In this document: positions 6,854-38,367 of the stretch, one piece after another
How positions within the stretch are numbered: the stretch's first letter is position 1
Layout of the letters: the number at the start of each line of letters is the position of its first letter
From: Patescibacteria group bacterium
GTDB taxonomy: Bacteria > Patescibacteriota > Minisyncoccia > Phycocordibacterales > UBA918
DNA length: 64,000 nucleotides
Assembly (NCBI GenBank): GCA_038061715.1
Contig: JBBTYP010000003.1
Span: 12,034 to 76,033, forward strand
Reading direction: 5' to 3'
The notes under the pieces: generated by a model
Told to the model about the DNA's origin: nothing
Database searches by the model: none
Seen by the model: only the letters and a program-made list of their open reading frames with translations
Made by a program: the position numbers and the translations under genes

Positions 6854-6872
6854 AGTATTTATTTATACTTTA

Positions 6873-9281: not shown

Positions 9282-9312
9282 AGCATAAACTAGAAATGCT
9301 GGTTATTTTAAG

Positions 9313-10452: not shown

Positions 10453-10491
10453 AAAAATACGGCCCCGTTCTCACAGGGCCGTTTTAGTTTA
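10453..10491. terminator. Bidirectional intrinsic terminator downstream of ParB-like gene
   Basis: aaaaat-acggccc-cgttctcaca-gggccgt-tttagttt. Confidence 0.6.
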
Positions 10492-17964: not shown

Positions 17965-17966
17965 AA

Positions 17967-18533: not shown

Positions 18534-18544
18534 ATTTTTAGATC

Positions 18545-18991: not shown

Positions 18992-19450
18992 CGTGGATAT
19001 CTGTTCGATATATTCCTATTATATTCTTTTGTTTATGGTTGTAAAGTGCTACAAATTTTACTTACGATGTGGAAGGAGTGGATAACTTCGGACATAACAG
19101 AATTAAGCTCGATAATAACTTTAAAAATAAGGGTTTTTAATACTAGTTGTCTGTTCGTATTGTACCGCTTACTCCCCACTTCGCAAACAACTTATCTAGC
19201 TAAGGTACTGACTAATAGCCCCGTTTAGCCTATTATTGACGACACAATACCTAACCAGAGAGTAATCTCTAGCGTGGTTTGAAGAATTCTTTCGCCAACG
19301 CGAACTGGTAATTGGTCGTTAGACGTCAGATTTGTAACATTTCGTTTAAATTGACACTACCGAGAGGCCTTAATTGGTACAGCGAAAAGTCGCCAAGAAA
19401 CCCTTGTGGAGCTTGATGGCACAAATTCCGATACTGAGAGGGAGCACAAC

Positions 19451-19852
19451 TTACTCCGATATTAATGTGGTGGCATCTAGCGCAGTTTCCAAATCCGTAG
19501 AACTAGCAGTCACTTCGGTTTCGCTAACCTCTACTGGCGCATAATTTTTATTTAAGGAATTGAGCTTATCTTGACGCTGTTTAATAATCTCGAGCACTTG
19601 ATTGACCAAGGTTTCTCGGTACACGACCTCTGCTGTATCATCAGCCGCCACCGAGACATCGATGGCTTGATTTTTAAAGTAAATATAAACACTTATAAAA
19701 GTAGCGAAAATAAATAATCCTAGAGAAACCACTAACCCGATTACCCACTCGCGTTGCGGGTGCATTAGCTGTGGATCACGAAGCGAAACTCTCTTTTTAG
19801 ATAGTTTCTTGAGAACATTCTTAATGTGCAGCCTATTTTTCATAATTAGCAA
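19451..19852 (-). CDS. Membrane-anchored hypothetical protein in pilMNO operon (PilP-position)
   Basis: 133 aa; single N-terminal TM; overlaps pilO by 20 nt. Confidence 0.4.
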   Translation of the reverse strand: MLIMKNRLHIKNVLKKLSKKRVSLRDPQLMHPQREWVIGLVVSLGLFIFATFISVYIYFKNQAIDVSVAADDTAEVVYRETLVNQVLEIIKQRQDKLNSLNKNYAPVEVSETEVTASSTDLETALDATTLISE

Positions 19853-20360
19853 TAAACACTCTAATCGTCACCTTGGCTTCCCAATTATTTTCTGAACGAT
19901 CTGTCATCTGCAATGAAGTTATCTCCGAAACGTAAGGGAGGTTTTCGAGAATAGTAACGAATCGATCGACATCACTTTGCGTACCAGAAAGTGTGAACTG
20001 GGCATTGACCCATTTATCTTTAGTTTTTTTGTCACTTCCTTCCTCAAGAGCGTCGGTCTTTAGCGTAATTCCGTTTTGTGGAGCCAAGGCTTCAACCTGA
20101 TTAAGGAAAGTGATGCTTTCACTCACTTGGGGTAAAAAGTAGTTATTTAATTGTTCGCGATCTGATTTTGAATCTTCGGAAATCTTTTGCAGATGATGGT
20201 AGGTTTTCTCAAGTTCGTTGCCAATTTTGATGGCGGCTAGTTGTGTTTTGAGGGTTTCCTCTTTGTCACTTATCATTTTGTAGCTAAAGCCAGACACTCC
20301 TACAGTAGTAAGGAGACAGACTGAAGCGATCAAAAAATTTCTAAGGGTACTACGGCTCAT
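19833..20360 (-). CDS. pilO: Type IV pilus assembly protein PilO-like
   Basis: 175 aa; N-terminal TM plus coiled coil; position after pilN; overlaps neighbours by 4 nt. Confidence 0.55.
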   Translation of the reverse strand: MSRSTLRNFLIASVCLLTTVGVSGFSYKMISDKEETLKTQLAAIKIGNELEKTYHHLQKISEDSKSDREQLNNYFLPQVSESITFLNQVEALAPQNGITLKTDALEEGSDKKTKDKWVNAQFTLSGTQSDVDRFVTILENLPYVSEITSLQMTDRSENNWEAKVTIRVFIANYEK

Positions 20361-20902
20361 AGATTTTTTTCTTTAGCCATTGTGATGCTGAGATCAAATG
20401 GTATATCGCGATCTTTGGCTAAATTAGAAATTGGTAAATCTACCGTTTCGATCCTTTCATCATCGAGCATACGAGTGCGAAAAGCCGCAAGCGTACGCCT
20501 GTCTTCTGCTGTACCCGCTACTTTTACTTCTTTGATACCCGTTTCATCCCGTCGAAGAGAAATCTGTGTAATGCGTAGACTGTTTGATTCAAAACCACGA
20601 AACAGCGAAACGTACTCGGTCATTGACGGATGTGCAAATCGATCAGATAAGGCAACCGCGGTCTGGCTGGCTCGTTCAAGCTCCTTGGCTACGTTTTCGA
20701 AGCTGGCGTTTTTCTCGTCCGCTGTTTCGGCTGAGGCTGTGTATGCTTTTACCTGAAGATTGATGAGCACGTACGATGGTATTAAAATAACGATACCTAG
20801 TAGCAATACAAAAGACCAGAGGAAGAACCAGACTGTCACCGAACGAAGCCAGTACTCATGGACTAAATGCTTTTTTGCCTCAAAAGGAATTAAGTTAATC
20901 AT
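20357..20902 (-). CDS. pilN: Type IV pilus assembly protein PilN
   Basis: MINLIPFEAKK... (INLLP-type start), single TM, fimbrial assembly family architecture. Confidence 0.65.
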   Translation of the reverse strand: MINLIPFEAKKHLVHEYWLRSVTVWFFLWSFVLLLGIVILIPSYVLINLQVKAYTASAETADEKNASFENVAKELERASQTAVALSDRFAHPSMTEYVSLFRGFESNSLRITQISLRRDETGIKEVKVAGTAEDRRTLAAFRTRMLDDERIETVDLPISNLAKDRDIPFDLSITMAKEKNL

Positions 20903-23904: not shown

Positions 23905-23994
23905 GGGGGCAAGTACACCTTGTCGCTATGTTTGTTCGTAAACTCACAAAATAGCTGGCAAGGCCTTGCGAAAGTCTCCCAGACTTTCTCACCC
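23905..23994. repeat. Copy 3 of intergenic repeat family (lacks 5' palindrome; GTACACCTTGTCGCTATG ... ACAAAATAGCTGGCAAGGCCTTGCGAAA ... hairpin gaaagtc-tccca-gactttc ... TCACCC)
   Basis: Abuts stop codon of minus-strand gene 23994-24464. Confidence 0.65.
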
Positions 23995-24464
23995 TAGAAA
24001 CCGAATAATTCAAGCACCTTCAAAAACAAAGGTTCATGAATGACTTCTTCAGGCAGGCGCTGCTCTAAGATACTTTCCACGTCATCAATGTGTTCGGGTG
24101 GGATTGGTAATACTAAAAGTGGTATGGATTTGCGGTGAGTGCGAATTAAGAGTTGCGGCCCACGCGGATCTTCCTCATCAAGGTGGTAAGCGTCGAGAGT
24201 TGAATAAGGAAACAGCTCATCCTCTACCTTCACTCCTCGCACACTAACACCATAGGGCACAATCGACGGTCTTTGCGCTGCCGACATCCCTAACACTCCG
24301 CCGGCGAGTCCTAATAAAAGGGCAAACATAACATTATCAAGTAGAATCGCAGTAACGACACAAGCGATTACAACTACTGCCAACGCCAAAAACCAGTCGT
24401 TGCCTTTTTCGACATGGTGATGTTGCGGTGCTTCCCAAAATATTCCCCGAACAGCTGGTTCCAT
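23994..24464 (-). CDS. Hypothetical membrane protein (2 TM helices plus possible bacterial PH-like domain)
   Basis: Start moved to internal ATG (MEPAVRG...) because the longer ORF would run up to the tRNA-Ser gene; TATTAT box directly upstream. Confidence 0.4.
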   Translation of the reverse strand: MEPAVRGIFWEAPQHHHVEKGNDWFLALAVVVIACVVTAILLDNVMFALLLGLAGGVLGMSAAQRPSIVPYGVSVRGVKVEDELFPYSTLDAYHLDEEDPRGPQLLIRTHRKSIPLLVLPIPPEHIDDVESILEQRLPEEVIHEPLFLKVLELFGF

Positions 24465-24565
24465 TTGTTTTATAATATCACAAAGCCAGTGTACATTTTG
24501 ACCAAGTTCTGTTACTATCTCGCGACAAACGACCGCCAGCAACCACTGCTGTCGGAAGCACATAC

Positions 24566-24880: not shown

Positions 24881-27529
24881 CTACTTTTGGTAAATTGTCA
24901 TTGTGCCAGCACTAGGAGCAGTGGTGGTGAGAATTTCGCCCGTCTTAATGGTTACATCAGATAGGTTTCCAGCTGTGACGGAAGCGGTTGAGTAAGAAAT
25001 TCCGTAGGTTCCAGCGGGAAGGTTCCCGACTGTGAAACTTCCTGATCCAGTTGTCTTGACCACAACCACATACTTACCGTCTTTGTTAATAAAGGCTATC
25101 GCTTGTTTACCACTATTAGTAGTAGTGGCTCCGATGCGAACGGCTCCTTTGCGCACGTACTTAAATACTTGGGCAAGTTGTGGGGTTGCGTTAGCTAGCG
25201 TAATAATCGCATTTTGTGGATTCGCAATATTTGCTCTTAGGTAGTAACCCCCGTTGTCTTGGAGCGTAGTTTTTTGGGCTAGACCCCATTGTTGCCAAGA
25301 AGAAACGTTACCGATTGTGAGATCCTCCCATAGCTGATCAATACCAGCTCCGACTTTTTCTAACATCGCTGTTTTTAAGTTACTTGCCTTAGCAGTATTA
25401 GCAATACTCTGAATAGTCGAAACCTGTTGTGAGCCGTAACGGTGATACGCCAGTACGTCGAGCGATGAGATAATCCCTGCCACCTTTATCATGTCGTTAA
25501 AATACGGCAAGGTGTTCGCTTCGTTGGTGACGGACGGAGCGATGTACTCTGGATTAAATCCATTCGCACTCAATTTGCTTTTTACTGCCATCATTCCGTC
25601 ACCGAGTTGTTTACCTCTCCAACTCAAACTGTTTTCTGGTTCAAGATTGACTTCAAACGCATCGGGGGTAATTCCATATTTGTCGCGCATGTGGATGAAG
25701 AAGGCGAGGATTAATTCTGCAAACTCGTTTGGGTTGTTGGCGTGACTCAAAGAACCTTGTGAGCCCGTACCAAAATCAACATAGTTAATGTTTACATAAG
25801 GTTTCTCACCCTGCTTAGCCAATTCAGTCTTCATTGGTAACAGCAGATGTTCTACTTGGTAATCAAAGTATGAGAACTGGATCCCTGCCGCCGAAAGTGA
25901 ATTTGGATCGTTGTTATCATTAATTTTTTCGTAGTAACGGCCTTGAGTCTCTGTGTATGTCATTTGACCGTTAACAAAGCGGGGCCAGTAATCAACTGGG
26001 TTCTCCATTCCGCTGGTTATCTCTAATCGAACTCCGTTGAGGCCAGCCTTATTTACGAGCGCTGCTGCTACTGCTGTGTCATTCGCTATTCGAGAACCAT
26101 CGTAACGGTTATTTGCTTTGTCGATATCCCAACCTCGGTTCATTACCATCCAGGTGTCTATGGTTTGGAATTTACTACTTGGATTTATGTTAATAGTGGC
26201 AGAAGTCGGAGTTGGTGTTGGGGTAGGTGTAGGGGTAGGTGTTGGTGTTGGTGTTGGAGTCGGTACTGGTGCAGGCGGAGTTGTGTTCCCTCCCGAGACC
26301 CGGGTGAGAAACTCTTCCGCACTCCAACCATCAAGTCCGGCAGCGTAGTCGATTTTCCACCACCAAATATTGTTGGCGTACGATGGGCCTCCAACTACTG
26401 TTCCTGTCGAGCCCTTTGGTTGATATCCGAGCCATTGTCCATAAGCAAGAGTACGAACCGAAAGCTGATTACTAGTTACGGTAACCTTGTCTTGAAGAGT
26501 AAACTTGGTACTCAAAGGAACTCTATCTGATGTTTGTGGGCTTTCTAACACTAAGGAAAGGAAGTTCTCGGCGCTCCAACCATCTGCTCCCGAATCGTAA
26601 TCGACTTTTCGCCACCATAGGTTGTTGGTGTAAGTTGGACCACCAACAATAGTTCCTCGCATATGCCGATTTTGAGATCCGATTTGATTACCGTTGGCCG
26701 CGTCACGCACCAAGAGCGGTGCGTCTACCGTGACCGCACGGTCGTTAAGTTGAAATTTACTGCTCCCGACTGGTGTAGTTGATGGTGGGGTATCAATAAC
26801 AGGGGGTAGTGTTGTCGGTGTTGGTTTTGGAGTTGGGGTTGGAGTTGGGGTTGGGGATGGGGTCTCTACTGGTACTGGTAATGGTGTCGGTTCTGGTGTC
26901 GGTTTCGGGGTTGGGGTCTCTGTTGGGGTTGGCGTAGCGGTAGGGCTAGGAGCTGGAGTTGTTTCTCCGATCTTTTCAAAGCGTACAGCATCAACCGACA
27001 CATTGGACATAGTGCCAGTTAAGGCCGTAAAGCTAACGCTGGCTTCCTTAGTAGCCGAAAAAGTGTAGTCGCCGTGGAGTATCCACTGCCCACCTCCACT
27101 GCGCTCTGAGAAGTTTTTTTCTGCCACACCGTTGGCGTGAGTCACTGAAACCGGCACTTTATCAGCATATTTTTCGTTGCTCACGTAACGTACCGATACT
27201 CGGTAAAGACCGTCGCTTGGAAGGGTGGTGAAGAAAGTAAAGTTCCGCGTTGGGTTACTTCCAACCCACTCGGTATAAAAGTCGGAACCATAGTAACCCG
27301 AGGAAGGGGTATCATTACTCTCCCATTTCCCACCGTCTCTTCTAGTGTGAGCGGTATCGTTGTTATCAATAACAATGGGTGAGGATTGAGAATTAGAAAC
27401 GGCAGCCGCCTGGGTATTTGTGTCATCGGTAACAGTCAGCGGCGCTGTGTCAGTCTTAAAGAAGACATAGGCTCCGACCGCAATCAGAACGAGAACAAAT
27501 AATAATAGGCTGATGGTTTTTTTACTCAT
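24881..27529 (-). CDS. Large secreted multi-domain protein: N-terminal beta-rich domain, PT-rich linkers, two SH3-like ~45-aa repeats, C-terminal GH-A clan glycoside-hydrolase-like domain (NEP motif)
   Basis: 882 aa; signal peptide; repeats GTIVGGPTYTNNLWWRKVDYDSGADGWSAENFL and GTVVGGPSYANNIWWWKIDYAAGLDGWSAEEFL; PTPTPT linkers; FEVNLEPENS. Confidence 0.5.
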   Translation of the reverse strand: MSKKTISLLLFVLVLIAVGAYVFFKTDTAPLTVTDDTNTQAAAVSNSQSSPIVIDNNDTAHTRRDGGKWESNDTPSSGYYGSDFYTEWVGSNPTRNFTFFTTLPSDGLYRVSVRYVSNEKYADKVPVSVTHANGVAEKNFSERSGGGQWILHGDYTFSATKEASVSFTALTGTMSNVSVDAVRFEKIGETTPAPSPTATPTPTETPTPKPTPEPTPLPVPVETPSPTPTPTPTPKPTPTTLPPVIDTPPSTTPVGSSKFQLNDRAVTVDAPLLVRDAANGNQIGSQNRHMRGTIVGGPTYTNNLWWRKVDYDSGADGWSAENFLSLVLESPQTSDRVPLSTKFTLQDKVTVTSNQLSVRTLAYGQWLGYQPKGSTGTVVGGPSYANNIWWWKIDYAAGLDGWSAEEFLTRVSGGNTTPPAPVPTPTPTPTPTPTPTPTPTPTSATININPSSKFQTIDTWMVMNRGWDIDKANNRYDGSRIANDTAVAAALVNKAGLNGVRLEITSGMENPVDYWPRFVNGQMTYTETQGRYYEKINDNNDPNSLSAAGIQFSYFDYQVEHLLLPMKTELAKQGEKPYVNINYVDFGTGSQGSLSHANNPNEFAELILAFFIHMRDKYGITPDAFEVNLEPENSLSWRGKQLGDGMMAVKSKLSANGFNPEYIAPSVTNEANTLPYFNDMIKVAGIISSLDVLAYHRYGSQQVSTIQSIANTAKASNLKTAMLEKVGAGIDQLWEDLTIGNVSSWQQWGLAQKTTLQDNGGYYLRANIANPQNAIITLANATPQLAQVFKYVRKGAVRIGATTTNSGKQAIAFINKDGKYVVVVKTTGSGSFTVGNLPAGTYGISYSTASVTAGNLSDVTIKTGEILTTTAPSAGTMTIYQK
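26821..26960. repeat. Tandem imperfect hexanucleotide repeats (ggtgtt/ggggtt units) encoding PT linker; similar tract at 26207-26268
   Basis: Direct reading of sequence; encodes PTPTPTP on minus strand. Confidence 0.8.
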
Positions 27530-27644
27530 AAGTAAGGTGCGAAAATTAATAGTGGGCTTTTTATAAGGTACTTTACTATTGTATCAGCTCAATATAGCAC
27601 CAAAACTGAGTCTGTGAGCAACAGCCGCCCCCTTACTTTAATCT

Positions 27645-28409
27645 TTACTGACTTTTCGCCTCAAAGTGGCTGATAGTACCGTCACTATGGGTAAGCGTAA
27701 GTGTGGCACCTAAGTGGGTCACGCTCAGAGTACCTACAAACTGTTGGGTAAACTCCATCTCTTGCGAACCTTCACAAAACATTTTGGTCATGGCTAGAGC
27801 ACCAATCGAAATTGTCCCATCAGTCTCGGTATAATTGCCTTTAAAGCCATTGCAGTCAGTAGCGCCGCTAATGGTGCCATCGGTAAAAGTGACCGCGAAC
27901 ACACCTGGCTGCTTGGGTGTTAGGCTATGGTCTTCTTTAATTGTTTCAATCCAAACATAGGTACCTGACAAACTACCCACTGGGGTGGTAGTGGACATTT
28001 CCAGTGTCGAGCTGGCAGCGTCACTTGGTAGATAAATTTCTTGATTCTGGCCAACAAAAAGTGTTCTTCGGCCGCGTTGTAATGTCACTTCATCGCCTTT
28101 GTTCCAAAGCGAGAGATTTTCGCTTTGGTTTTCATACTTAGCGCCAGAAGCGGCTTCAACTTGCATAAATAACAAGTTGCTGTAACCCTTACCATTTAGG
28201 AGCGCCGTGCTAGTACCGAAGGTCACAAATATAGAATCGCCAGTTTCGGTAGAAATGAACGCCACCGGAGTCGGAGAAATAGCTGGCGGAGCTGCTATTT
28301 CTTGTTCGCTTAAGTCCTGTATGTTTGGTCTGGTGATTAACCAGGCAACACAGATAGTCCCAAAGAGTAGCAGGCCTCCTAATACTGTTGCTTTTACGAA
28401 ACTGCTCAT
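27645..28409 (-). CDS. Secreted protein with MliC-like and META/HslJ-like (DUF306) domains
   Basis: 254 aa; signal anchor; GATDCNGFKGNYTETDGTISIGALAMTKMFC resembles the META-domain GCN...G...M.C pattern. Confidence 0.4.
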   Translation of the reverse strand: MSSFVKATVLGGLLLFGTICVAWLITRPNIQDLSEQEIAAPPAISPTPVAFISTETGDSIFVTFGTSTALLNGKGYSNLLFMQVEAASGAKYENQSENLSLWNKGDEVTLQRGRRTLFVGQNQEIYLPSDAASSTLEMSTTTPVGSLSGTYVWIETIKEDHSLTPKQPGVFAVTFTDGTISGATDCNGFKGNYTETDGTISIGALAMTKMFCEGSQEMEFTQQFVGTLSVTHLGATLTLTHSDGTISHFEAKSQ

Positions 28410-28554
28410 ACCTGAATAATGGCCTATTTTAAGTAATTTTCCAAGTTCAATTATGCCTATTTATTGACTTTTTGTCTAAAATATGATATCATTCAAAGTT
28501 GGGAGAATACTTATATGGCGATCAAAATGACGCCGTTCAACAATAAGGGGTACC

Positions 28555-30066
28555 TTGAAAATGAACCATATAATCAAACGTCCCCGGCTATCGCTGTGGG
28601 ACAAAGTCAAGGCTGCCACCCGTTGGTGCCTTGTCCCTCCAATCCCTGAAGAGGTGTTAGTCCGTGAAGCCGACTATCGTCGCGGCCTGGATAACTTCGG
28701 CCCAATCTACGGCCGATGGCTCGCTCTGCGAGCAGTCGTAGAAGCTGAAATCGAAGCTTTTTTGAGTGCGATCTACGTCCGCCGGCAATATCAGCCGGTG
28801 CGACACGTCTTGTTCGCACGAGAACGCAGGCTATTTGTAGTTCTCATCGGCACAGTTGTGCTGATATTTGCTGCTAATGCCAACGCGGAAAAGCGGCTGC
28901 TGCCGCAATTCTCCGTCTCGATTGATGAGTTGTCGGCTTCGGTGACTGATTTCCTAATCAAACCAGACAATTGGCTGAGTGGTCCGGCTTCCCTCACGGG
29001 CAGTCGAGCCTCCGTCCTCGGTGCGTTTCATTACGCTAAAGAGGCTCGCTATGCTTTTGCTGCCAATAATGCTGAACGCGACCGCTTGGTCGCCAACGGC
29101 ACTTTGGTAAAGCTTGAGGGTCCATACCTTGAGCTGATTGACGTGTCGAGCCCTTACGTCTTGCCGGTGGTGGCGAAATCCACCAATCGACTCGGACAGC
29201 AATACGCTGAGCAGGGTTGTGGCAAATTGAAAGTTTCAAGCGGCATGAGACCGCTCGATTTTCAAAAGACAATCAAACACGGCTCCAGCCTATCGGTTCA
29301 TCCGACTGGTATGGCGGTTGACTTGCGTCGAATCGTCCCCGAGAACAAAGAGCAAATCACTTGCCTTAACTGGCTCGCGAAAACGCTCCAAGCCATCGAG
29401 GCCGACGGTCGAGTCGACGCCACAGCCGAGACAAGACCGGAGCGACACTTTCATGTGGTCGCCGTGCCGCATGTCTACGAAGCCTGGCTGGCGACTTTAC
29501 CGCCACAACTCGATCCTGACGTGAAATGGTTGGCAACGACGCTTCATTTTGAAGCCGCACCAAACGAACTAACGGAAGGCTATCGGGCCATCGCGTGGGT
29601 AATCCGCAATCGGGTGCGTTCGAGCGAATTCCCCAACACCACCATCGAGGTGGTAGCTGAGGGAGCCGCTGGTCTTAGTACCGGTGGTTGCCAGTTCAGC
29701 TTCATGTGTGACGGTAAGCAGGAGGATATCTATGAACCCTGCAAGACGCCGAACCCGCTCATGACGCGGTATTGGTTAAATAAATGCGCTGAACGTTGGG
29801 AGGTGGTGGTCAACATCGCCAAACAAGTTCTCGCTGAACCAGAAACCAATGACCCGACTGGGGGTGCGGTATTGTATTACGCCGCATCCATGCCAAAGGC
29901 ACCCGCTTGGTCAATGCGGAGGGTTGAGACAAGGAGGCGTGAAGACGGTTCCAAGTATCAAATCGCGCTTGCTAATGGGGACTTGAAAACAGGAACCATC
30001 AAGCAAATCGGTAGCCATATTTTTGGCTGCTCGATTTTCCGTGGCAAAGACGCCTGTCGATCATAA
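28555..30066 (+). CDS. Membrane-anchored two-domain peptidoglycan hydrolase: peptidase M15 (VanY-like) plus SleB-like cell-wall hydrolase domain; GC-rich (~58%) gene
   Basis: 503 aa; SSGMRPLDFQKTIKHGSSLSVHPTGMAVDLRR (SxHxxGxAxD zinc-site pattern of M15); C-terminal YRAIAWVIRNRVRSSEFPNTTIEVV...QFSFMCDG...GGAVLYY matches SleB family blocks. Confidence 0.65.
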   Translation: MKMNHIIKRPRLSLWDKVKAATRWCLVPPIPEEVLVREADYRRGLDNFGPIYGRWLALRAVVEAEIEAFLSAIYVRRQYQPVRHVLFARERRLFVVLIGTVVLIFAANANAEKRLLPQFSVSIDELSASVTDFLIKPDNWLSGPASLTGSRASVLGAFHYAKEARYAFAANNAERDRLVANGTLVKLEGPYLELIDVSSPYVLPVVAKSTNRLGQQYAEQGCGKLKVSSGMRPLDFQKTIKHGSSLSVHPTGMAVDLRRIVPENKEQITCLNWLAKTLQAIEADGRVDATAETRPERHFHVVAVPHVYEAWLATLPPQLDPDVKWLATTLHFEAAPNELTEGYRAIAWVIRNRVRSSEFPNTTIEVVAEGAAGLSTGGCQFSFMCDGKQEDIYEPCKTPNPLMTRYWLNKCAERWEVVVNIAKQVLAEPETNDPTGGAVLYYAASMPKAPAWSMRRVETRRREDGSKYQIALANGDLKTGTIKQIGSHIFGCSIFRGKDACRS

Positions 30067-30077
30067 GGAGAAGGAGT

Positions 30078-30767
30078 ATGAAGAAGCAGTTCCTCATCAT
30101 TGCTGGTGTTTTTTTCGCTGGCGTGGGAGCTATCCCAACCTACCAGCACCTGACCACCCCATTGGTGGTGCCAGTGCCGGTTTTCACCCCGAATGAAAAA
30201 CCAATCTTGGTCTCGGCCGAGGAAATCGCGGCGGCGGTGCGGGCGGATGCCTTCTTGGTGTCATCCCGCAGCAAAGCCACTGCGGTGGCGGTGGTGAAGT
30301 CGGGTGTCGACATCAGTTCCGACACTCCGACTGACGGCTGGGGGGCTTGGTTGCGACAATGGTGGAATTACCACACTACGCGCGACCGATTGACGGCTGA
30401 AGTGAGTGGTGAGGTGCTGGCGGGTTTCGACCTCAAGCAAATCACTGCCGCCAATGTCGTCAAAAATACCGACGACGAGGTGGTCTTCAATCTGGGTACG
30501 CCAGAATTCATGGGCGTGCTCAACGACGAGATGGCCACCAAGACCATCAAGCGGGAGACCGGTTGGTTTCGTCTCAAGGATGAGACCCTGCTGCTGGCCG
30601 CCCAGGCTTTGGGTGAACCAGCACTGCAGTCAAGCGCCTGCCACGACGGTGCTCTTCGCACCGCCGGTGAGTCGGGGACGGAAGTCGTGCGACGCATCAA
30701 CAATTATTTGCGTTTGCGAGGCTCTCGCCGAAGCGTTCAAGTGATCTTTACGCCACGCTCATGCTAA
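30078..30767 (+). CDS. Hypothetical exported protein co-located with the GC-rich hydrolase (same atypical composition)
   Basis: 229 aa; N-terminal TM/signal; 12-nt gap to upstream gene. Confidence 0.35.
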   Translation: MKKQFLIIAGVFFAGVGAIPTYQHLTTPLVVPVPVFTPNEKPILVSAEEIAAAVRADAFLVSSRSKATAVAVVKSGVDISSDTPTDGWGAWLRQWWNYHTTRDRLTAEVSGEVLAGFDLKQITAANVVKNTDDEVVFNLGTPEFMGVLNDEMATKTIKRETGWFRLKDETLLLAAQALGEPALQSSACHDGALRTAGESGTEVVRRINNYLRLRGSRRSVQVIFTPRSC

Positions 30768-30786
30768 ATGGGCTGGCGAAACTTTC

Positions 30787-30840
30787 AAGGGCTCCGCCTC
30801 GACTTTATGTCGTGCGGAGCCCTTTCTTTTATGTTTTCTA
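30787..30840. terminator. Intrinsic terminator after GC-rich two-gene unit
   Basis: aagggctccgc ... gcggagccctt followed by tcttttatgtttt. Confidence 0.65.
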
Positions 30841-30850
30841 TAGGACCTTC

Positions 30851-30872
30851 TCACTATCATATATGATAGTGA
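30851..30872. promoter_or_regulatory. 22-bp perfect palindrome TCACTATCATATATGATAGTGA (copy A); putative operator or recombination site
   Basis: 20-bp core repeated exactly at 38265-38284. Confidence 0.5.
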
Positions 30873-30882
30873 CCGATTATTT

Positions 30883-31377
30883 TTATTTCAGATAACTGTC
30901 GAAATAGATTGCATGGCAAGTATACCCTCCCGCATTTTTTTGCAAGTAATCCTGGTGGTAATCTTCAGCTGGCCAAAAGCGAGTTAATGGTTCTAGGGTA
31001 GTCACGACTGGACCTTGCCACCGCTCTGATTCGTTTACAATCTCTATCATCTCTTCCGCTGTTTTTTTCTCTTCATCGTTGGCATAGAAAATGGCCGACC
31101 GATATGAAGTTCCTTTGTCGTTTCCTTGTTGATTGAAAGTAGTTGGATTATGAATCTGAAAAAAGAAATCCAGAAGATTTTTGTATGAAGTTACTGTCGG
31201 GTCATAGGTAATCTCCACTGCCTCGGCGTGCCCAGGATGAAATTCGTAAGTTGGGTTTTCATTTTTCCCTCCGGCGTAGCCAGCTTCCGTGTCGATGACC
31301 CCGGGTTGGGTGCGAAGGAGATCTTCGAGTCCCCAGAAGCAGCCGCCAGCCAGTACAGCTTTTTTGAGTTCAGTCAT
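30883..31377 (-). CDS. msrA: Peptide methionine sulfoxide reductase A
   Basis: [15 protein letters not shown] active-site motif. Confidence 0.9.
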
Positions 31378-31380
31378 AAC

Positions 31381-31785
31381 TTATTTATTATTCATTTCTA
31401 GAGAAATACCGTTAATGCAGTAGCGGTCGTGTCGACCAAAATCGCGTTCGCCTTCACCCTTCCGCTCTGGTCCATCAGGGAACACGTGTCCGAGATGAGC
31501 TTTGCAATTGGCACAACGTACTTCGGTACGACGCATACCGTGACTGCTGTCATGAACCAAAATCACCGCCTTTTTGTCTACCGGGTCGGTAAATGACGGC
31601 CAGCCCGAGCCGGAGTCAAACTTTGTATCAGAATCAAATAGCACCGCCTGACAGATCGCACAATGAAACATCCCTTCATCGTCAATGTGGAGTAAGTCAC
31701 TGGAGTGCGGAGCCTCTGTACCACCCTCCCTAGCCACGCGATATAACTCTGGATTGTCTTTCTTCAATTGTTCATCTGTCTTCAT
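31381..31785 (-). CDS. msrB: Peptide methionine sulfoxide reductase B
   Basis: CxxC...CxxC zinc site and RCANCKAHLGHVFPDGP catalytic motif. Confidence 0.9.
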   Translation of the reverse strand: MKTDEQLKKDNPELYRVAREGGTEAPHSSDLLHIDDEGMFHCAICQAVLFDSDTKFDSGSGWPSFTDPVDKKAVILVHDSSHGMRRTEVRCANCKAHLGHVFPDGPERKGEGERDFGRHDRYCINGISLEMNNK

Positions 31786-31854
31786 AGATATGTATAATTA
31801 GATGTTAAGTCGACTTTACTACGAATAGTTTACATCTTTATTTCAAATTGACAA

Positions 31855-31886
31855 AGAAAAAGTCCCCTAGCGGGGACTTTTTCTTT
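31855..31886. terminator. Bidirectional terminator downstream of rpsT
   Basis: aaaaagtcccc-tagc-ggggactttttc. Confidence 0.7.
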
Positions 31887-31890
31887 GGTT

Positions 31891-32154
31891 TTATTGAGCT
31901 TTCTTAATACGAGCGCTGAGACGAGACTTTTTGCGAGCGGCAGTGTTGTCCTTGATGACGCCCCGCTTGGCGGCCTTGTCGATGGCTTTGTAGGCGGCTG
32001 GAAGAAGTTCCTTAGCCTTGGTAACATCACCAGCTACCACCGCTTTGTTGATGTCCTTGGTTACATCTTTCATGGCAGTCTTGCGGCGAAGGTTGAACAC
32101 CTGCTTGCGCTTAGACCCTCGTAGTGCTTTTTCTGCTCCTTTAGTGATTGGCAT
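31891..32154 (-). CDS. rpsT: 30S ribosomal protein S20
   Basis: 87 aa, basic, KAIDKAAKRGVIKDNTAARKKSRL typical of S20. Confidence 0.85.
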   Translation of the reverse strand: MPITKGAEKALRGSKRKQVFNLRRKTAMKDVTKDINKAVVAGDVTKAKELLPAAYKAIDKAAKRGVIKDNTAARKKSRLSARIKKAQ

Positions 32155-32247
32155 AATAATTTAAATTTGAAGTGGGCATACTGTACCCCAGGACCAGAAA
32201 AATGGCAAGTATTCGCCTATTCCCTTTTTGGCTTGTACAATACTCAC

Positions 32248-32820
32248 ATGATTCGAATGTTAGTGGGGGAAATTGTGGTGGTGGCTGATGGATATGTCAC
32301 GGTGCTGGTGGGAGGGGTGGGATATCTTGTCGGAACCAATACTAAAGGAGTGGCGTTTCGCGTCGGCGACCCTGTCACTCTGCACACTCACCTAGCCGTC
32401 CGCGAAACAGCGCTCGACCTTTATGGATTCGTATCGATTTCTGAACTCGATATTTTCGAACTCCTTATGCAGGTACCAAAGATTGGTCCGAAGTCATCAC
32501 TGCAGATAATGAATCAGGCAAGCCCGACCCTTCTACTTGAAGCGATTGGCAAAAAGGACGCCGCTTATCTGCACAAGTTGTCTGGTATTGGAAAGAAAAC
32601 CTGTGAAAACATTGTGCAGTTCCTGCATGACAAGGTAGAGGGAATGGCCTTTGCTATGGACCTTGATGTCACTAGTGGCCTGACTGAAGCCCAAACCGAC
32701 GCGATTGATGCGCTGGTTTCACTCGGCTACGATCTGACCTCAGCCCGGACTTCAGTGAAGGATCTAGCTGGTGAAACCGCAAACGACCTCATCAGACAAG
32801 CTCTCAAACAAATGCCTTAA
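32248..32820 (+). CDS. ruvA: Holliday junction DNA helicase subunit RuvA
   Basis: MIRMLVGEIVVV...VLVGGVGYLV N-terminus and HhH motifs; start chosen at internal ATG (ORF-track start 32167 gives a non-conserved 27-aa extension). Confidence 0.8.
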   Translation: MIRMLVGEIVVVADGYVTVLVGGVGYLVGTNTKGVAFRVGDPVTLHTHLAVRETALDLYGFVSISELDIFELLMQVPKIGPKSSLQIMNQASPTLLLEAIGKKDAAYLHKLSGIGKKTCENIVQFLHDKVEGMAFAMDLDVTSGLTEAQTDAIDALVSLGYDLTSARTSVKDLAGETANDLIRQALKQMP

Positions 32821-32947
32821 CCCTTCCTTACCTTGTCATACAGGTTCTGCAAACTTCGGTTTCTAGATTAATAAATGACATAAGGCTCACACTGCCTAGT
32901 TATTTTCAAACGCTGCCCATCATATAATAAAAGGACCGTTTTATTTT

Positions 32948-34222
32948 ATGGACAACATTCGAACTTTCATCAAAAAATATTTACCTGTTTCACTTTTTCG
33001 AGTACTCCAGCCACACTACCATCTGGCGTTAGCTTGGTGGGGCGCAGTGAAGTACAATCACCCTTCACGACAAATCACTGTCATTGCAATAACTGGCACT
33101 AAAGGCAAATCCACTACTACCGAACTCATCGCTCACATTCTTCGTGGTAGTGGAAAGAAAGTTGCTTCCCTCTCAACTATTCAATTTGTGATTGGCGACT
33201 CCGCGTCCCGCAATCTGTTTAAGATGACAACCCCTGGCCGCTTTTTCGTGCAGAAGTTTTTGCGACAAGCAGTTACGGCTGGCTGTACGTATGCGGTGCT
33301 CGAAATGTCCTCTGAAGGTGCTCGGCAGTTCAGGCACAGATTCATCGACTTTGATGCGTTAGTGTTTACCAACCTCTCACCTGAGCACATCGAATCCCAC
33401 GGCTCATTTGAAAAATACAAAGCGGCCAAGCTCTCGATTGCACACGCAGTATCACAATCAACCAAACGACCGCGTATCATCGTCTCTAACGTTGACGATG
33501 TACATGGAGACGATTTTCTTAATCTTGAAGCCGAAAAGAAAATTCCTTATGCCCTGGCAAATCTATCGCTACACACACTACACAAAGACAGTGTTAGTCT
33601 GGTTCTTGATGGCGTAACTATTCGGGTACCGATTGTTGGTCTATTTAATGTCTACAACACTCTAGCCGCTATTAAGCTCGCTCGAGCTTTGGGGGTTACG
33701 CTCGAAGCTGCGGCCGAAATCCTACGTACTATCCCTCCGATTAAAGGCCGGGTTGAACAATTTGAAAGTGGTAAGGATAAGTCGAAGCAACTAACTGCGG
33801 TCGTCGATTATGCCCATACGGTCGACTCACTTGAAAAGCTCTATCAGGCCTTTCCCGACCAACCGAAGGTGTGTGTCCTTGGTAACACTGGCGGCGGGCG
33901 CGACACTTGGAAGCGCCCCGAGATGGCAGCGGTAGCGGAAAAGTATTGTGACCATGTAATCCTTACCAATGAAGACCCTTACGATGAAGACCCGAAAAAA
34001 ATTATTGATGACATGGTCAAGGGGATGTCGAGTACAGAGAAACTAACCATTATCATGGACCGTCGTGAAGCCATCAAAAAAGCGCTTGAGCTGGCTCCTC
34101 CAGGTGGTTACGTCCTGGTCTCTGGCAAGGGCACCGACCCCTACATTATGGAAGCCGGGGGCAAGAAGACTCCTTGGAGTGATGCGGAAGTAGTGAAAGA
34201 ATTATTGGCTGAATTAAAGTAA
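32948..34222 (+). CDS. Mur-ligase family protein (MurE/MurF-like, short form)
   Basis: ITGTKGKSTT P-loop of Mur ligases; VVDYAHTVDSL block; 424 aa without a clear N-terminal domain. Confidence 0.65.
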   Translation: MDNIRTFIKKYLPVSLFRVLQPHYHLALAWWGAVKYNHPSRQITVIAITGTKGKSTTTELIAHILRGSGKKVASLSTIQFVIGDSASRNLFKMTTPGRFFVQKFLRQAVTAGCTYAVLEMSSEGARQFRHRFIDFDALVFTNLSPEHIESHGSFEKYKAAKLSIAHAVSQSTKRPRIIVSNVDDVHGDDFLNLEAEKKIPYALANLSLHTLHKDSVSLVLDGVTIRVPIVGLFNVYNTLAAIKLARALGVTLEAAAEILRTIPPIKGRVEQFESGKDKSKQLTAVVDYAHTVDSLEKLYQAFPDQPKVCVLGNTGGGRDTWKRPEMAAVAEKYCDHVILTNEDPYDEDPKKIIDDMVKGMSSTEKLTIIMDRREAIKKALELAPPGGYVLVSGKGTDPYIMEAGGKKTPWSDAEVVKELLAELK

Positions 34223-34295
34223 ATTACCGAGCAACAAGTTGACGAGGTCTTCTGAACAAACGAGCAAAGAACGGCGGCCTTCGGCTGCCGTTCTT

Positions 34296-34844
34296 TTAAG
34301 TTATCCCATGGTAGAGAACAATCCCTGCCGTTACCGACACATTTAGCGACTCCTTTTGACCAAGCATTGGCAACTCTATGATCACATCAGCCAACTCAAG
34401 GGTCTCTTTTGAAACACCTTCAATTTCGTTGCCGACAATGTAGGCAACATGTTCTGGCTCTTTAAAGTCCTTGAGTAATATACTCCCCTTTGCTAGCTCG
34501 ACAGCTGCCACGGTTACACCGCTTATTTGTAGCTTCTCTATCACTTCCTTTGTGGTCGCCATCTGCTCCCACAGCATGGTTTCGCTGGCACCAAGCGACG
34601 TCTTTTTAATTTCTGATTGCACTCGCCCAAATCTATCTATTGGCGTTGGTGTATAGCCCACCAAAAATATCTTCGCCACTCCGGCGGCATCGGCAGTCCG
34701 AAAAATCGCTCCGACATTGTACGCACTTCTGATGTCTTCGAGGATTATGTATTTCACAATGGTAGCGTAGCAAAGAAAAATAACTTTTACGAGATGTTTG
34801 ATTTTTAAGACTAAAATGTTATAGTTTTGCCACTTTGGAAACAA
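34296..34844 (-). CDS. SpoU/TrmH-family RNA 2'-O-methyltransferase
   Basis: NVGAIFRTADAAGV and IVGNEIEGVS motifs of SPOUT methyltransferases. Confidence 0.75.
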   Translation of the reverse strand: MFPKWQNYNILVLKIKHLVKVIFLCYATIVKYIILEDIRSAYNVGAIFRTADAAGVAKIFLVGYTPTPIDRFGRVQSEIKKTSLGASETMLWEQMATTKEVIEKLQISGVTVAAVELAKGSILLKDFKEPEHVAYIVGNEIEGVSKETLELADVIIELPMLGQKESLNVSVTAGIVLYHGIT

Positions 34845-34866
34845 AGAATTAACCGAGCAAAAATAT

Positions 34867-34940
34867 CCGCCCTTAGCTCAGTCGGTAGCTTGGGGAGCAT
34901 CCCATGCTTCCCAACCCTTGATTAAGGAGATGGGTCGATA
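34867..34940 (+). pseudogene. Truncated/rearranged copy of tRNA-Lys 5' half (22 nt identical to tRNA-Lys 5' end, 26-nt hairpin insertion, retained anticodon-loop segment, no T-arm)
   Basis: ccgcccttagctcagtcggtag + cttggggagcatcccatgcttcccaa + cccttgattaaggagatgg, compared with the intact gene 27 bp downstream. Confidence 0.6.
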
Positions 34941-34960
34941 TAAATTAAGGAAGAATATTT

Positions 34961-35033
34961 CCGCCCTTAGCTCAGTCGGTAGAGCGGCTCCCTTTTAAGG
35001 AGATGGTCCCAGGTTCGAGCCCTGGAGGGCGGA
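34961..35033 (+). tRNA. tRNA-Lys (TTT)
   Basis: Acceptor CCGCCCT/AGGGCGG (C1-G72), D-arm GCTC-AGTCGGTA-GAGC, anticodon loop CTTTTAA, T-arm CCAGG-TTCGAGC-CCTGG. Confidence 0.8.
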
Positions 35034-35050
35034 CAAGTGAAAAGCCCCAG

Positions 35051-35087
35051 ACTTATGTCTGGGGCTTTTCTTTTTTCGTCCCCCTTA
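35051..35087. terminator. Intrinsic terminator after tRNA-Lys
   Basis: aaagccccagac-ttat-gtctggggcttt-tcttttttc. Confidence 0.75.
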
Positions 35088-35108
35088 GTAACAAGAGGTG
35101 AGTTTGAG

Positions 35109-37655
35109 CTACGGATTACTTGGTACTGGAACCAGTCTTGGGTTCGCTAACCAAGAGAAGCTAGAATACATTCTGATCTGTTGGCCGTTTCCTAGATCAC
35201 CGCCCGAACAATTGAGCAAATTATCGATGCAATTTTTACTCCATATATCCATCACGGTATGATCCCAGGCGCCAAACCAATCGGAGTGTAAGGTAGATCC
35301 TGGCGTCATCATGGTTCCGTTGGACATTTTGTCAGAAGACAGATACCAGCTTGGCAGATTGGCATCACTGGTATACCAGGCACCCAGGGTGAAGGTTGGA
35401 ATTACGTAAGGGTGGGTTGATGGACACTGGGCATAACCCTGACCAATGTAGCTTGAGTAGGCGACGTGAGAACGGTGGTTAGCACTATCGAGGTTTTTAC
35501 CGTCCCAACATTCTGGTGCGCTCAGTACCGCACCGATCTGGCTTCCAACGGGGCAGTTAAGTCTAGCTTTGTCGAGATCCGCATAGTGTCCTGACACCGC
35601 ACCGTTACCAATACAATTGAAGTAGCCAGCTCCTGTTGGTTTGGTGCCGCTGACCATGTCGTATCCGAAGACAAAACGTAGTCCACGAGGCAGGTCTACA
35701 CAACCCATCGCTCCAATCTTGGTACAAAGGGGATCAGTCTTAGGTCGTCGTTTGTAGTAAATACTGATGTAATCAGGTTTTACTACATTACCCTTACCAT
35801 CAAGCATGGCCGGCATCCAGTAGGCTGACCGGTTGAGTGGACTCATACAGGTACTATTACCAGTTCTCCGCAAGCTGTCATAAGTTGAGTTTGCATTGGC
35901 CAGAGTATTACCAAAGAATTGATGTAGGTGTGACTTACCGGGTTGTCCAGGGTAGACAATTGGATCATCGTAAATGAGTTGTCCAGCATTACAGATAAAA
36001 CGGAAGGCTCCAACTACGTCTGGTTTTGCGCTGGCTGGGATAGCTCCCGTTCCCCAAGAGGGGACCAGTTCAGAGCTCACGGTAAAGTTACTAGCAATTG
36101 CTGCCAGCTCAACCCCAGGAGGGATTCCACTAGGAGTTGGCGTCGGAGTAGGGGTTGGGGTTGGGGTGGGTTCTGGTGTCGGGGCTGGGATTGGGGTTGG
36201 GGTAGGAGTTGGAATTGGAGTACCCGCCAACAAGGCGTCAATGACTGGCTTGTAGACACGTGAGAGTTTTACCTGACCTCCTTCACCAACTCCTTGGGTA
36301 CTGTCAGTCGGATGAACTCCATCTTGGTAGAGGGTCTTATCTGCTGCCGCCACATCTGGTCCCATCGGGGTAGTACCGCCAAAATCAATAACGGCATCAA
36401 TCTTTTTTCCAACTTGGGCTTTCAGCAAAAGATTGACCTCGGCTCTCCTTTTATTAAAATTGGTATTGTTTAGAGTATTGTTTGTCCCTGGGACAGCTTG
36501 TGGCAATACTGTTCCCACGGCCACCTTGGCCCCTCCAGTCTTAATCGGTTCGATGTATGTAAGGAGTGCGTCAACGTAGGCTTGTGCGCTGGAATAGTTA
36601 AGTAATCCGTTGGCACCGACCAAAACCGAGAATACCTTGGGTTTCGCATTAAGAACTAGTTGCCGTCTGGCAGTCATAGCATTTATATCCGAACCGCCGA
36701 CAGCCAGTCCTTTGAAGGTGATGTCAGTTCGGGAACTAGAGTAAATCCCCGTGTAATTACCTCCCCAAAAAACCGATATACTGTCACCTTCCGCTACCAC
36801 TACTGGCTTACCAGAAGTAGTCGGGGCTGGTTCTGGAGCTGGAGCTGGAGTCGGGGTAGGAGTTGGAGTTGGATCTGGGTCCGGATTAGGTAGTGGGGTC
36901 GGTGTAGGGGCTGGTTTTGAGGAGCCTCCTCCTCCGCCGCCTGTACTAGTGCTGTCATTTGTTACCGTCACCTTGGTTGACCTAACTACAGTAGTGCCTT
37001 TAGCCAGACAACTTAGAGTATAAGTGAAAGTGCCCACTCTTCGCGCCTTGATTGTTTTGCTGCCGCTTTTAGGTTGGGTTCTGGACCAACTTCCAGAAGC
37101 CTTGCAAGAACTTACATTGAAGGCATTCCAACGTAGGACGAAGTTTTTACCTTTCTGAACGGTAGCTGGTGAAGCATATATTACAATTAAGGGCTCAGCT
37201 GTAATCCCGGCCGTCAAGGCTCTCATGGAGGCACTGTACGGTACGTTATAGGCTTGATCTGGAGATTTCGCCAAGTATTGGGAGTGTTCTTGGGTTAAGA
37301 AAAAAGCTGTTTGCTCATCAATAGCTCCTGACACCCTAATATTGTTATCGGTTTGGAACTTACGGACAGCGGCTTCGGTAAGTGGGCCGAAGTACCCCGT
37401 CGGAGAAACTCTTAGATAGTCCAAGTTGTGGAGAAACAACTGCATTCGAGCCACCTCAGTCGTTTCAAAACCAAAGGAAATCGGAAGTGCTTGTATGCCT
37501 TCAGATGTATCAAGTGCAACCGGTTCGGTGTGAACCACGCCGTTGTGGGCAAACGCAACCGAACTAGTAAGGAAGGACAAAAGAACAAAAGTTACAATCC
37601 TATTACTTAGAGTCTTCATGTAAATAAGCTTTATTTTAATAGTAATTAACAGCAT
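35109..37655 (-). CDS. Large secreted multi-domain protein: peptidoglycan-binding domain, SGNH/GDSL-type hydrolase domain, PT linkers, Cys/Trp-rich C-terminal domain of unknown function
   Basis: 848 aa; signal peptide; PG_binding_1-like [27 protein letters not shown]; [15 protein letters not shown] (GDS block I of SGNH hydrolases); PTPTPT linkers. Confidence 0.5.
36133..36225. repeat. Tandem imperfect hexanucleotide repeats encoding PT linker (second tract at 36828-36950)
   Basis: ggggttggggttggggtgggttctggtgtcggggctggga... direct reading. Confidence 0.8.
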
Positions 37656-37674: not shown

Positions 37675-38367
37675 CTAAATCCCCAATATCCACTCCTCCA
37701 GCGCCCCGTCCAAATCCCGCTTCCCTTGGTGGGCTAGGTGGTAGAGTTCAAGCAGTGACCGTGACAAGGCCTCGACTTCCCCATCTTTAAAATTACGGAG
37801 CGACTGAGTAGCCTTTTTGTAGGGGTAGTCTTTCATACCAGCCTCCTTTGCACTTCTGCTTAACTTCGCTAGTCGAAGCGATTTGAGCTGCCACCAGAGC
37901 AGGCCGATGGTTTCTTCGTCGCGGACTCCGGCCGCACGAGCTTCCTGGAGCAAGACCCATAGTTGTTTTTTGTCCTTCTTCGCCAGAGCTTCGGTGATAG
38001 CAAAGCGATTGAAATCAGTGGCCTTCGTGGCGGTAAATTCTTCAATCTCAGTGGCCTGCTTGGAATACTTCTTTTTTTTGTCGGCGAGAAGCGGACCTTC
38101 AAGGACGATGAAGATATTATGTGAAGCAGCCAGCTCGGCCAGGGTGCCAAAAATCTCTGATTCAAAATCCTCATCACCAGATGGTGTGTCGAGCAAAAAA
38201 CACTCCTTACCGCCAAACAGCGAACTGGCGCCCACCGCGCTTGCCACCAAGCCTAGTTTATATTCACTATCATATATGATAGTGGGAGATACTTCGAATT
38301 TATCTATCTCGGTTTGAGCTCTGTCCCTAATTGCCCTTCTGTCTGTTCCGTAAAAAACTGCGAGCAT
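37675..38367 (-). CDS. holA: Putative DNA polymerase III delta subunit (HolA-like, short)
   Basis: N-terminus MLAVFYGTDRRAIRDRA... resembles HolA LYLLYGEE... start; located 1 nt after polA stop; only 230 aa. Confidence 0.4.
   Translation of the reverse strand: MLAVFYGTDRRAIRDRAQTEIDKFEVSPTIIYDSEYKLGLVASAVGASSLFGGKECFLLDTPSGDEDFESEIFGTLAELAASHNIFIVLEGPLLADKKKKYSKQATEIEEFTATKATDFNRFAITEALAKKDKKQLWVLLQEARAAGVRDEETIGLLWWQLKSLRLAKLSRSAKEAGMKDYPYKKATQSLRNFKDGEVEALSRSLLELYHLAHQGKRDLDGALEEWILGI
38264..38284. promoter_or_regulatory. Second copy of palindrome TCACTATCATATATGATAGTG, inside holA N-terminal coding region
   Basis: Exact 21-nt match to 30851-30871. Confidence 0.5.

Follow-up and report, generated by a model that had tools for sequence, protein, structure and literature searches.

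Why are two adjacent genes of a GC-poor patescibacterial genome richer in guanine and cytosine (GC) than the DNA around them? The question is raised by positions 28555-30767 of the window, by which we mean the whole 64,000-nt stretch analysed here (positions 12,034 to 76,033 of contig JBBTYP010000003.1, a 322-kb contig from Hainich groundwater). An earlier interpretation of the window from its letters alone, hereafter the sequence-only reading, had described two open reading frames (ORFs) at this place, of 503 and 229 amino acids, as a GC-rich insertion encoding a peptidoglycan hydrolase and an exported partner, captured from a host or a host phage. Both ORFs are present as described, and codon-position analysis identified them as genuine compositional outliers. 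In our view, the pair is probably a native, long-resident bicistronic operon of Paceibacteria and not a recent insertion. It would comprise a two-headed, membrane-anchored hydrolase (HYD) and a partner with a DUF4230 domain, forming a recombination mosaic in which the catalytic residues are fixed.

Homologues were sought among 5.8 billion proteins, and a scan of metagenomes contributed four further full-length loci. Genomic loci are designated by L-numbers, homologous proteins by P-numbers and the window by W. GC content was compared over the 19 loci with a usable background, and gene statistics within the window were based on 62 long ORFs. Mosaicism was examined in 10 loci, giving 44 locus pairs with flank data, where flank identity is the mean identity of six housekeeping proteins.

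A two-domain hydrolase and its DUF4230 partner

The HYD gene (28555-30066, + strand) encodes 503 residues from a TTG codon at 28555. The start annotated by NCBI, an ATG at 28561, yields a 501-residue form, whose numbering is used throughout. The product is a 100% match to P0001 and is deposited as 'DUF5715 family protein [Patescibacteria group bacterium]'. An AlphaFold model of HYD, based on 33 homologues, had a mean predicted local distance difference test (pLDDT) score of 84.8, with values exceeding 90 in the ectodomain. From the N- to the C-terminus, the model contains a helical region of 85 residues, one transmembrane (TM) helix, a disordered linker and two globular domains.

The N-terminal, presumably cytoplasmic, region (residues 1-85; 28561-28815, + strand) comprises three helices in the model. 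It had no match in a Pfam scan and is hypervariable, the window protein sharing no more than 28% identity with any homologue in this part. A membrane anchor had been proposed, and a single hydrophobic helix was indeed found directly after the charged segment RERR (residues 86-107, ARERR-LFVVLIGTVVLIFAANA; 28816-28881, + strand). Its hydropathy maximum of 2.21 lies at residue 91, and the segment is helical in the model. As the positive charges lie on the N-terminal side of the TM helix, the protein is predicted to adopt an N-in orientation with its catalytic domains outside. Together, the positive-inside rule and eight ectodomain cysteines suggest that both catalytic domains face outward.

The first globular domain (residues ~133-310; 28957-29490, + strand) has the LAS (Hedgehog/DD-peptidase) fold and matched Pfam DUF5715 over residues 192-302 (E-value of 5e-7; 30.0 bits against a cut-off of 26.8). 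Its putative metal-binding and catalytic residues are H247 and D254, within the sequence SVHPTGMAVD (residues 245-254; nt 29293-29322), and H296 and H298, within H296-F-H298 (nt 29446-29454). Each of the four is kept in at least 90% of homologues, and together they present the H-x6-D and H-x-H zinc-binding signature. The SxHxxGxAxD motif reported for a VanY/M15-type peptidase is thus real, but the family is a different one: no VanY or Peptidase_M15 model in Pfam matched HYD at an E-value of 1 or below. The domain shares its fold and zinc signature with the LAS metallopeptidases (MEROPS M15/M74: VanY, VanX, LdcB, MepA, Ply500 and the Streptomyces Zn DD-peptidase; also the Hedgehog N-domain). 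It differs from these in its profile, and its bond specificity could be that of a DD-endopeptidase, a carboxypeptidase or an L-Ala-D-Glu peptidase.

The second globular domain, including a Cys-rich C-terminal tail (residues ~316-499; 29506-30057, + strand), has the fold of the SleB catalytic domain. As had been proposed, it belongs to the SleB family, matching Pfam Hydrolase_2 over residues 338-457 well above threshold (E-value of 1.6e-14; 54.7 bits against 27). E331, in the sequence HFEAA (nt 29545-29559), is invariant among homologues; in the alignment it coincides with the glutamate in the YGES motif of SleB, the catalytic residue of that enzyme. A family signature, GGCQFSFMCDGK, is encoded by nt 29683-29718. 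Although HYD shares the Hydrolase_2 domain with the SleB/CwlJ family (PF07486; Bacillus SleB, PDB 4f55 and 4fet), its TIGR02869 score of 26 is far below the cut-off of 236.5, indicating that the domain is of the SleB family without being a SleB orthologue. Moreover, HYD lacks the N-terminal PG_binding_1 domain (Pfam) and, in its Paceibacteria setting, a sporulation context. It carries the signature as an additional Cys-rich insert besides the tail, and its SleB-type domain is joined to a peptidase and a membrane anchor.

The catalytic residues are retained throughout the homologues of HYD with the sole exception of the most distant one, P0044 (L184, 4395-5783), in which the LAS ligands are lost (H to R, D to S, HFH to GFD) and the Glu of Hydrolase_2 is kept. 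A separate Peptidase_M15_4 gene occurs in L184 two genes upstream of P0044. Overall, the sequence and the model support the assignment of HYD as a membrane-anchored, bifunctional peptidoglycan hydrolase, combining a putative M15-like LAS zinc peptidase with a SleB-family domain. The architecture had been called endolysin-like. It does contain two putative wall-cleaving domains, but the term is only loosely apt: the predicted cytoplasmic domain and membrane anchor give HYD the layout of a resident wall hydrolase rather than that of an endolysin.

The partner gene (30078-30767, + strand) encodes 229 residues that matched Pfam DUF4230 with 30.3 bits against a cut-off of 27. The same domain was matched in the downstream gene of L001, L002, L181-L185 and L189. 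According to hydropathy, the partner has an N-terminal signal-anchor helix, and the alignment revealed two invariant cysteines, C188 and C229. When the partner was searched by profile against PDB sequences, no credible match appeared. Its start codon lies 11 nt past the HYD stop codon, behind a strong ribosome-binding site, AAGGAGAAGGAG; in relatives, the two ORFs overlap. The short gap with its ribosome-binding site here and the overlap elsewhere point to co-translation of HYD and partner. The proposal that the partner is exported is upheld by the signal-anchor helix of a protein predicted to be co-transcribed with HYD.

Distribution, chromosomal position and mosaicism

The homologue search yielded 44 clusters with the same two-domain architecture and 35-60% identity, after which the E-value jumped from 1e-57 to 1e-18. 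The named two-domain homologues come from metagenome-assembled genomes (MAGs) labelled Patescibacteria, Parcubacteria, Paceibacteria or Paceibacterota, with one exception from a bin labelled Bdellovibrionales. On the contig of that bin (L010), a partner-less family member of 372 residues (57-1175) lies beside a Suf Fe-S cluster operon. It represents either a binning error or the sole occurrence outside Patescibacteria. As grounds for its own refutation, the sequence-only reading had named closest homologues in other genomes of the candidate phyla radiation (CPR) that are themselves GC-rich. Half of this holds: the closest homologues of the pair do lie in other CPR genomes, but these are GC-poor, and in each the pair is GC-rich. 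The organism itself is labelled Patescibacteria, and neither this label nor those of its relatives points to the Actinobacteria-associated Saccharibacteria, contrary to the suggestion of an episymbiont of high-GC hosts.

In at least 12 loci (W, L002, L006, L007, L008, L104, L181-183, L185, L188 and L189), whose housekeeping proteins are 60-99% identical to one another, the chromosomal position of the pair is shared: it lies beside msrA-msrB-S20-ruvA-mur ligase-spoU-polA. The neighbours at the locus are housekeeping genes, and no integrase, mobility or phage genes were found among them. A search for flanking direct repeats or target-site duplications returned only short matches at chance level, and the nearest tRNA gene (34961-35033) is ~4 kb off and not adjacent. 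The description of the pair as an insertion is not borne out by these data, and a recently inserted genomic island was rejected on the same grounds, the fixed site being that of at least 12 loci retrieved with the hydrolase. The tRNA gene (+ strand; 66 bits in Rfam) is ~98% identical in L002, L181 and L182, where the surrounding DNA is 70-80% identical.

Among phage and viral contigs, none carried a full-length HYD or a DUF4230 neighbour. Phage matches covered the Hydrolase_2 domain only, with 28-37% identity, and came from phages of Ruegeria, Stenotrophomonas and Xanthomonas; actinophages were not among them. The SleB-type endolysins of these phages and of Pseudomonas phages contain a homologous glycan-cleaving domain (Foldseek probability of 1.0). 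However, they are single-domain proteins of ~150-210 residues, whereas HYD has two domains and sits in a locus without phage genes. A phage endolysin or prophage lysis cassette was rejected in view of the housekeeping neighbours, the lack of a full-length phage match and the 85-residue cytoplasmic domain that precedes the TM helix.

Outside the family, the DUF5715 domain is closest to DUF5715+LysM proteins of Gemmatimonadota (Gemmatirosa, Longimicrobiales, Gemmatimonadaceae) and Lysobacterales, with 35-44% identity over ~170 residues. These proteins, which belong to other phyla, carry wall-binding LysM repeats where HYD has a Hydrolase_2 domain and a TM anchor. The Hydrolase_2 domain is closest to proteins of Saccharibacteria, Nomurabacteria, Rhodobacterales and Sphingomonas (~29-49% identity over short segments), and the nearest such domains outside the CPR with a CQFSFMCD motif are those of Rhodobacterales and Sphingomonas. 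In a Saccharibacteria MAG (L011), two tandem Hydrolase_2-only genes (9818-10468 and 10627-11316) are GC-richer than their surroundings, and their products are 38% and 51% identical to the C-terminal domain of HYD over local segments.

Divergence of the pair does not follow divergence of the chromosome around it. Across the 44 locus pairs, identity in the catalytic region of HYD (47-79%) was uncorrelated with flank identity (66-99%; Spearman coefficient of -0.08), as was partner identity (0.10). Nor was the relationship between HYD and partner identity significant (Spearman coefficient of 0.18, p = 0.28). Compared with the window, for example, L104 is 89% identical in the flanks, 49% in the hydrolase and 68% in the partner; the respective values for L002 are 87%, 54% and 30%. 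The comparison of L006 with L181 revealed a sharply bounded, ~1-kb segment encoding the ectodomain with 48-70% nucleotide identity, set within flanks, a 5' third of the HYD gene and most of a partner gene that are 92-100% identical. At the level of single domains, identity between P0008 and P0017 falls from 100% at the N-terminus to 97% in the LAS and 67% in the Hydrolase_2 domain. In P0018, the LAS domain belongs to one clade and the Hydrolase_2 domain is 82-86% identical to that of another.

Three types of hydrolase were distinguished: A (window, L001, L006, L181), B (L008, L104, L182, L183) and C (L002, L007). At least four partner types, mutually ~30% identical, are found in free combination with them. 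Type B alone occurs with three partner types, and in L104 it is accompanied by a partner of the alpha type. As judged from the sequences, the variation has the form expected of a functional protein that is exposed at the surface and has diversified through homologous exchange between lineages; its domains and its partner reassort independently. In the window, tblastn detected no silent donor cassettes or paralogues. A diversity-generating retroelement was rejected as the source of variation, the variable block being ~1 kb long with 48-70% identity and not a short, adenine-specific variable repeat.

The pneumococcal pbp genes and the surface antigens of Neisseria are mosaic genes shaped by interstrain recombination. 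Like them, HYD contains sharp-edged divergent blocks in a near-identical locus, and its gene tree is discordant with the flanks. Unlike them, it shuffles the catalytic domains of a peptidoglycan hydrolase, and does so in uncultivated CPR bacteria.

The GC excess and its possible origins

The GC content of the unit is 55.1%, against 45.4% for the window. The sequence-only reading had put both ORFs at ~58% against ~45%. The figures for the partner (58.0%) and the surroundings stand, and that for HYD (53.8%) was overstated. The unit is the GC maximum among all 2.2-kb windows of the stretch, lying 3.4 standard deviations (SD) above the mean. GC content at third codon positions (GC3) is 0.573 in HYD and 0.683 in the partner, compared with 0.435 ± 0.055, placing the partner and HYD in the top two ranks of the 62 genes. 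About half of the excess lies at codon positions 1+2, reflecting proteins rich in Ala, Arg, Val, Trp and Cys; the remaining half is at synonymous sites. The third GC-richest gene of the window (43438-44424, + strand; 328 residues) has a GC content of 53.3% and a GC3 of 0.53. At the other extreme, gene blocks at 6380-10276 and 16740-20360 are AT-rich (35-41% GC; GC3 of 0.30-0.41), the latter containing pilin-like ORFs that adjoin pilM and are 57-65% identical to their L002 orthologues.

The excess recurs throughout the family. In each of the 19 loci, HYD exceeds the neighbouring genes in GC content by 3 to 10 percentage points, and its GC3 is typically 0.53-0.63 against a background of 0.39-0.52. 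Wherever it was measured, the partner is enriched to a similar degree, and the Hydrolase_2-only homologues of Saccharibacteria and Nomurabacteria are likewise GC-richer than their surroundings. No genome was found whose background GC content is as high as that of the HYD gene. The excess is therefore a long-standing property of the gene family in these relatives and not the trace of a recent import.

These data bear directly on the explanation from which the analysis started, namely that an endolysin-like pair was captured recently from a high-GC host of the Actinobacteria, or from its phage, and has kept the composition of the donor. The position of the pair at the GC maximum of the window, its elevated GC3 and the existence of SleB-type domains as phage endolysins all agree with such a capture. 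However, the homology search, for which matches to Actinobacteria or actinophages had been predicted, returned none; the phage matches are single-domain and from proteobacterial phages, and the nearest full-length homologues, none above 60% identity, are all patescibacterial. Considering also the chromosomal position kept in divergent relatives, the excess in every locus, the missing marks of mobility (genes, flanking repeats and an adjacent tRNA) and an N-terminal layout unlike that of an endolysin, we regard recent capture as almost certainly wrong. An older event, in which the domains or the fused gene entered the ancestor of the Paceibacteria clade from high-GC Gram-negative bacteria and a shared allele pool then slowed amelioration, would account for the closest outside relatives of each domain and for the GC-rich Hydrolase_2-only genes of Saccharibacteria and Nomurabacteria. 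We nonetheless consider it distinctly unlikely. According to amelioration theory, the synonymous sites of alleles with ~45-60% protein identity should be saturated and the donor composition should have decayed, yet GC3 remains at 0.53-0.63 in most loci, and no background reaches the GC content of the gene. As inherited composition is expected to decay and the excess persists, a directional force is likelier than historical inertia. It is more likely that such a force, tied to recombination (GC-biased gene conversion) or consisting in selection, maintains the excess than that it is the remnant of a foreign donor. An association of intragenic recombination with higher gene GC content has been documented across bacteria (PMC4450053). 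GC-biased gene conversion at a recombination hot spot is in itself a tentative explanation, to which we give rather less credence than to its alternatives taken together.

Two further explanations were weighed, and we consider both improbable. One holds that the GC excess simply follows from amino-acid composition or from chance differences between genes. Consistent with this idea, GC content at positions 1+2 is raised by 1.6 to 1.8 SD through the enriched residues, and it correlates with GC3 across the genes of the window (r = 0.36). Regression of GC3 on GC content at positions 1+2, however, left residuals of +2.0 SD for HYD and +4.1 SD for the partner, and the excess also occurs in alleles with ~50% protein identity. 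The other casts HYD as an antibacterial effector and the DUF4230 protein as its cognate immunity factor, diversifying in an arms race. The two-gene operon, the predicted extracytoplasmic location of both products, their strong diversification and the MliC-type inhibitor gene adjacent in some loci would fit a toxin-immunity pair. Against it, partner type does not co-vary with hydrolase type, which also weakens the earlier suggestion of an immunity role for the partner. The partner is missing from three loci, and HYD is anchored by an N-terminal TM helix, with no recognizable secretion-system or toxin-delivery domain. PADLOC had no match for HYD, the partner or the MliC/META protein, a weak point, as its library is one of anti-phage defence.

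Several observations weigh against our own reading of a native, long-resident operon. Every comparison locus was retrieved through the hydrolase itself, so genomes with an empty site could not appear. The nearest relatives of each domain outside Patescibacteria belong to high-GC lineages, which is what leaves an ancient foreign origin in contention. The Pfam scores of DUF5715 and DUF4230 barely exceed their thresholds, the AlphaFold model of the partner, from 23 close homologues, had a pLDDT of 47 and was unusable, and our literature search turned up no biochemistry on any DUF5715 or DUF4230 protein. The partner is absent from L007, L009 and L010, indicating that it is not obligatory. Finally, the pilin-like ORFs at 19451-20902, fast-evolving surface genes that are 57-65% identical to those of L002, are AT-rich; divergence alone does not raise GC content in this window.

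Expression signals, neighbouring genes and proposed function

HYD is preceded by a 145-bp, AT-rich spacer that separates it from a divergent gene. A consensus scan of this spacer predicted overlapping, divergent sigma-70-like promoters (28450-28492, both strands), each matching at 10 of 12 positions: TTGACT-17-TATCAT with a TG element on the + strand and TAGACA-17-CATAAT on the - strand. An Rfam scan of 27000-36000 detected no riboswitch or leader upstream of HYD, the only hit being the tRNA gene. Downstream of the partner lies an intrinsic terminator (30787-30838, + strand), consisting of a hairpin (30787-30824) with an 11-bp GC-rich stem and an inner 4-bp extension, followed by TCTTTTATGTTTTC. 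The 116-nt stretch that contains it has a centroid energy of -39 kcal/mol (z = -6.5).

A perfect, AT-rich palindrome of 22 bp, TCACTATCATATATGATAGTGA (30851-30872), lies in the gap separating the terminator from the 3' end of msrA. The unit had been described as bounded by these two elements. Both are real, but they do not bracket it, as both lie downstream of the second gene. Furthermore, the palindrome has a second copy with one mismatch at 38264-38285, within the 5' part of an ORF (37675-38367, - strand) upstream of polA; by chance, none would be expected. Because of this copy, the palindrome is probably not part of the HYD-partner unit. It was not found in the related loci L001, L002 and L006-L045, and it may serve as an operator or as a binding site for some other protein.

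The divergent gene (27645-28409, - strand) encodes a predicted exported protein with MliC (lysozyme-inhibitor) and META domains (Pfam E-values of 2.8e-10 and 2.3e-16), in which the motifs SGAKY and NKGDE align with Pseudomonas aeruginosa MliC (3f6z_B). The gene adjoins HYD in the window, L002, L104 and L184, which are 4 of the 19 loci. This linkage, extending to the most distant locus, suggests that the MliC/META protein may be functionally associated with HYD, and it might inhibit the lysozyme-like SleB-type domain. Beyond it, an ORF at 24881-27529 (- strand) encodes an 882-residue secreted protein with a Golvesin_C domain, Pro/Thr-rich linkers and a GH30-type beta-sandwich. L002, although syntenic in other respects, lacks this gene and has one for a mechanosensitive channel in its place. 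The whole zone from the ORF at 23994-24563 to msrA is variable.

In the mechanism that we propose, a bicistronic mRNA would begin at the promoter-like site (28464-28492) and end at the terminator. HYD would insert into the membrane with its N-terminus inside (type II) and a single TM helix. Outside the membrane, the LAS domain, holding Zn2+ through H247, D254 and H298, would cut peptide stems or cross-links, and the Hydrolase_2 domain, with E331 as general acid, would cleave the glycan strand, probably by lytic transglycosylation as in SleB. The partner would be a bitopic, extracytoplasmic protein, translationally coupled to HYD and presumably its modulator or scaffold. Lineages of Paceibacteria would exchange parts of the ectodomain, individual catalytic domains and the partner with one another.

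Tethered to the outer face of the membrane, HYD would act on wall within its reach. Possible targets are the cell's own sacculus (during growth, division or pilus insertion), the wall of an attached cell, or both. Remodelling of the cell's own wall is the role that we favour, at no better than even confidence; attack on the wall of a host or prey is a less probable assignment, and some other role accounts for the small share that is left. We also entertain a more elaborate scenario, unlikely as it is, in which HYD opens the wall of the attached organism and allele swapping tracks the peptidoglycan chemotype or inhibitors of the host, making HYD a determinant of host range. In this scenario, DUF4230 and, where present, the MliC/META protein would shield the producer, and GC-biased gene conversion at a recombination hot spot would have left its mark in the GC3 excess.

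The two catalytic domains each fall within a known superfamily (SleB/Hydrolase_2 and LAS/M15-like). By contrast, the two-domain fusion, the membrane-anchored layout, the linkage to DUF4230, the restriction to Paceibacteria and the mosaicism at the level of domains appear to be undescribed. Our literature search found no paper naming DUF5715, encountered DUF4230 in five papers, solely as an uncharacterised annotation, and returned nothing on SleB-type enzymes in Patescibacteria. The locus would provide the first functional context for these two families. Its ectodomain is experimentally tractable, in that it could be expressed and assayed on different peptidoglycans.

The interest of the locus lies more in its mosaic evolution and its lasting GC anomaly than in horizontal transfer, and it cautions that a sharp GC island may be an old, native, recombining locus and not a recent import. 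To our knowledge, the host interactions of CPR/Patescibacteria beyond Saccharibacteria are largely unknown, and most Paceibacteria have no known host. A clade-restricted, surface-tethered, two-headed murein hydrolase with shuffled catalytic domains is a candidate factor at the cell-wall interface of these bacteria, where it may serve in autolysis, in the breaching of host walls or as a phage receptor.

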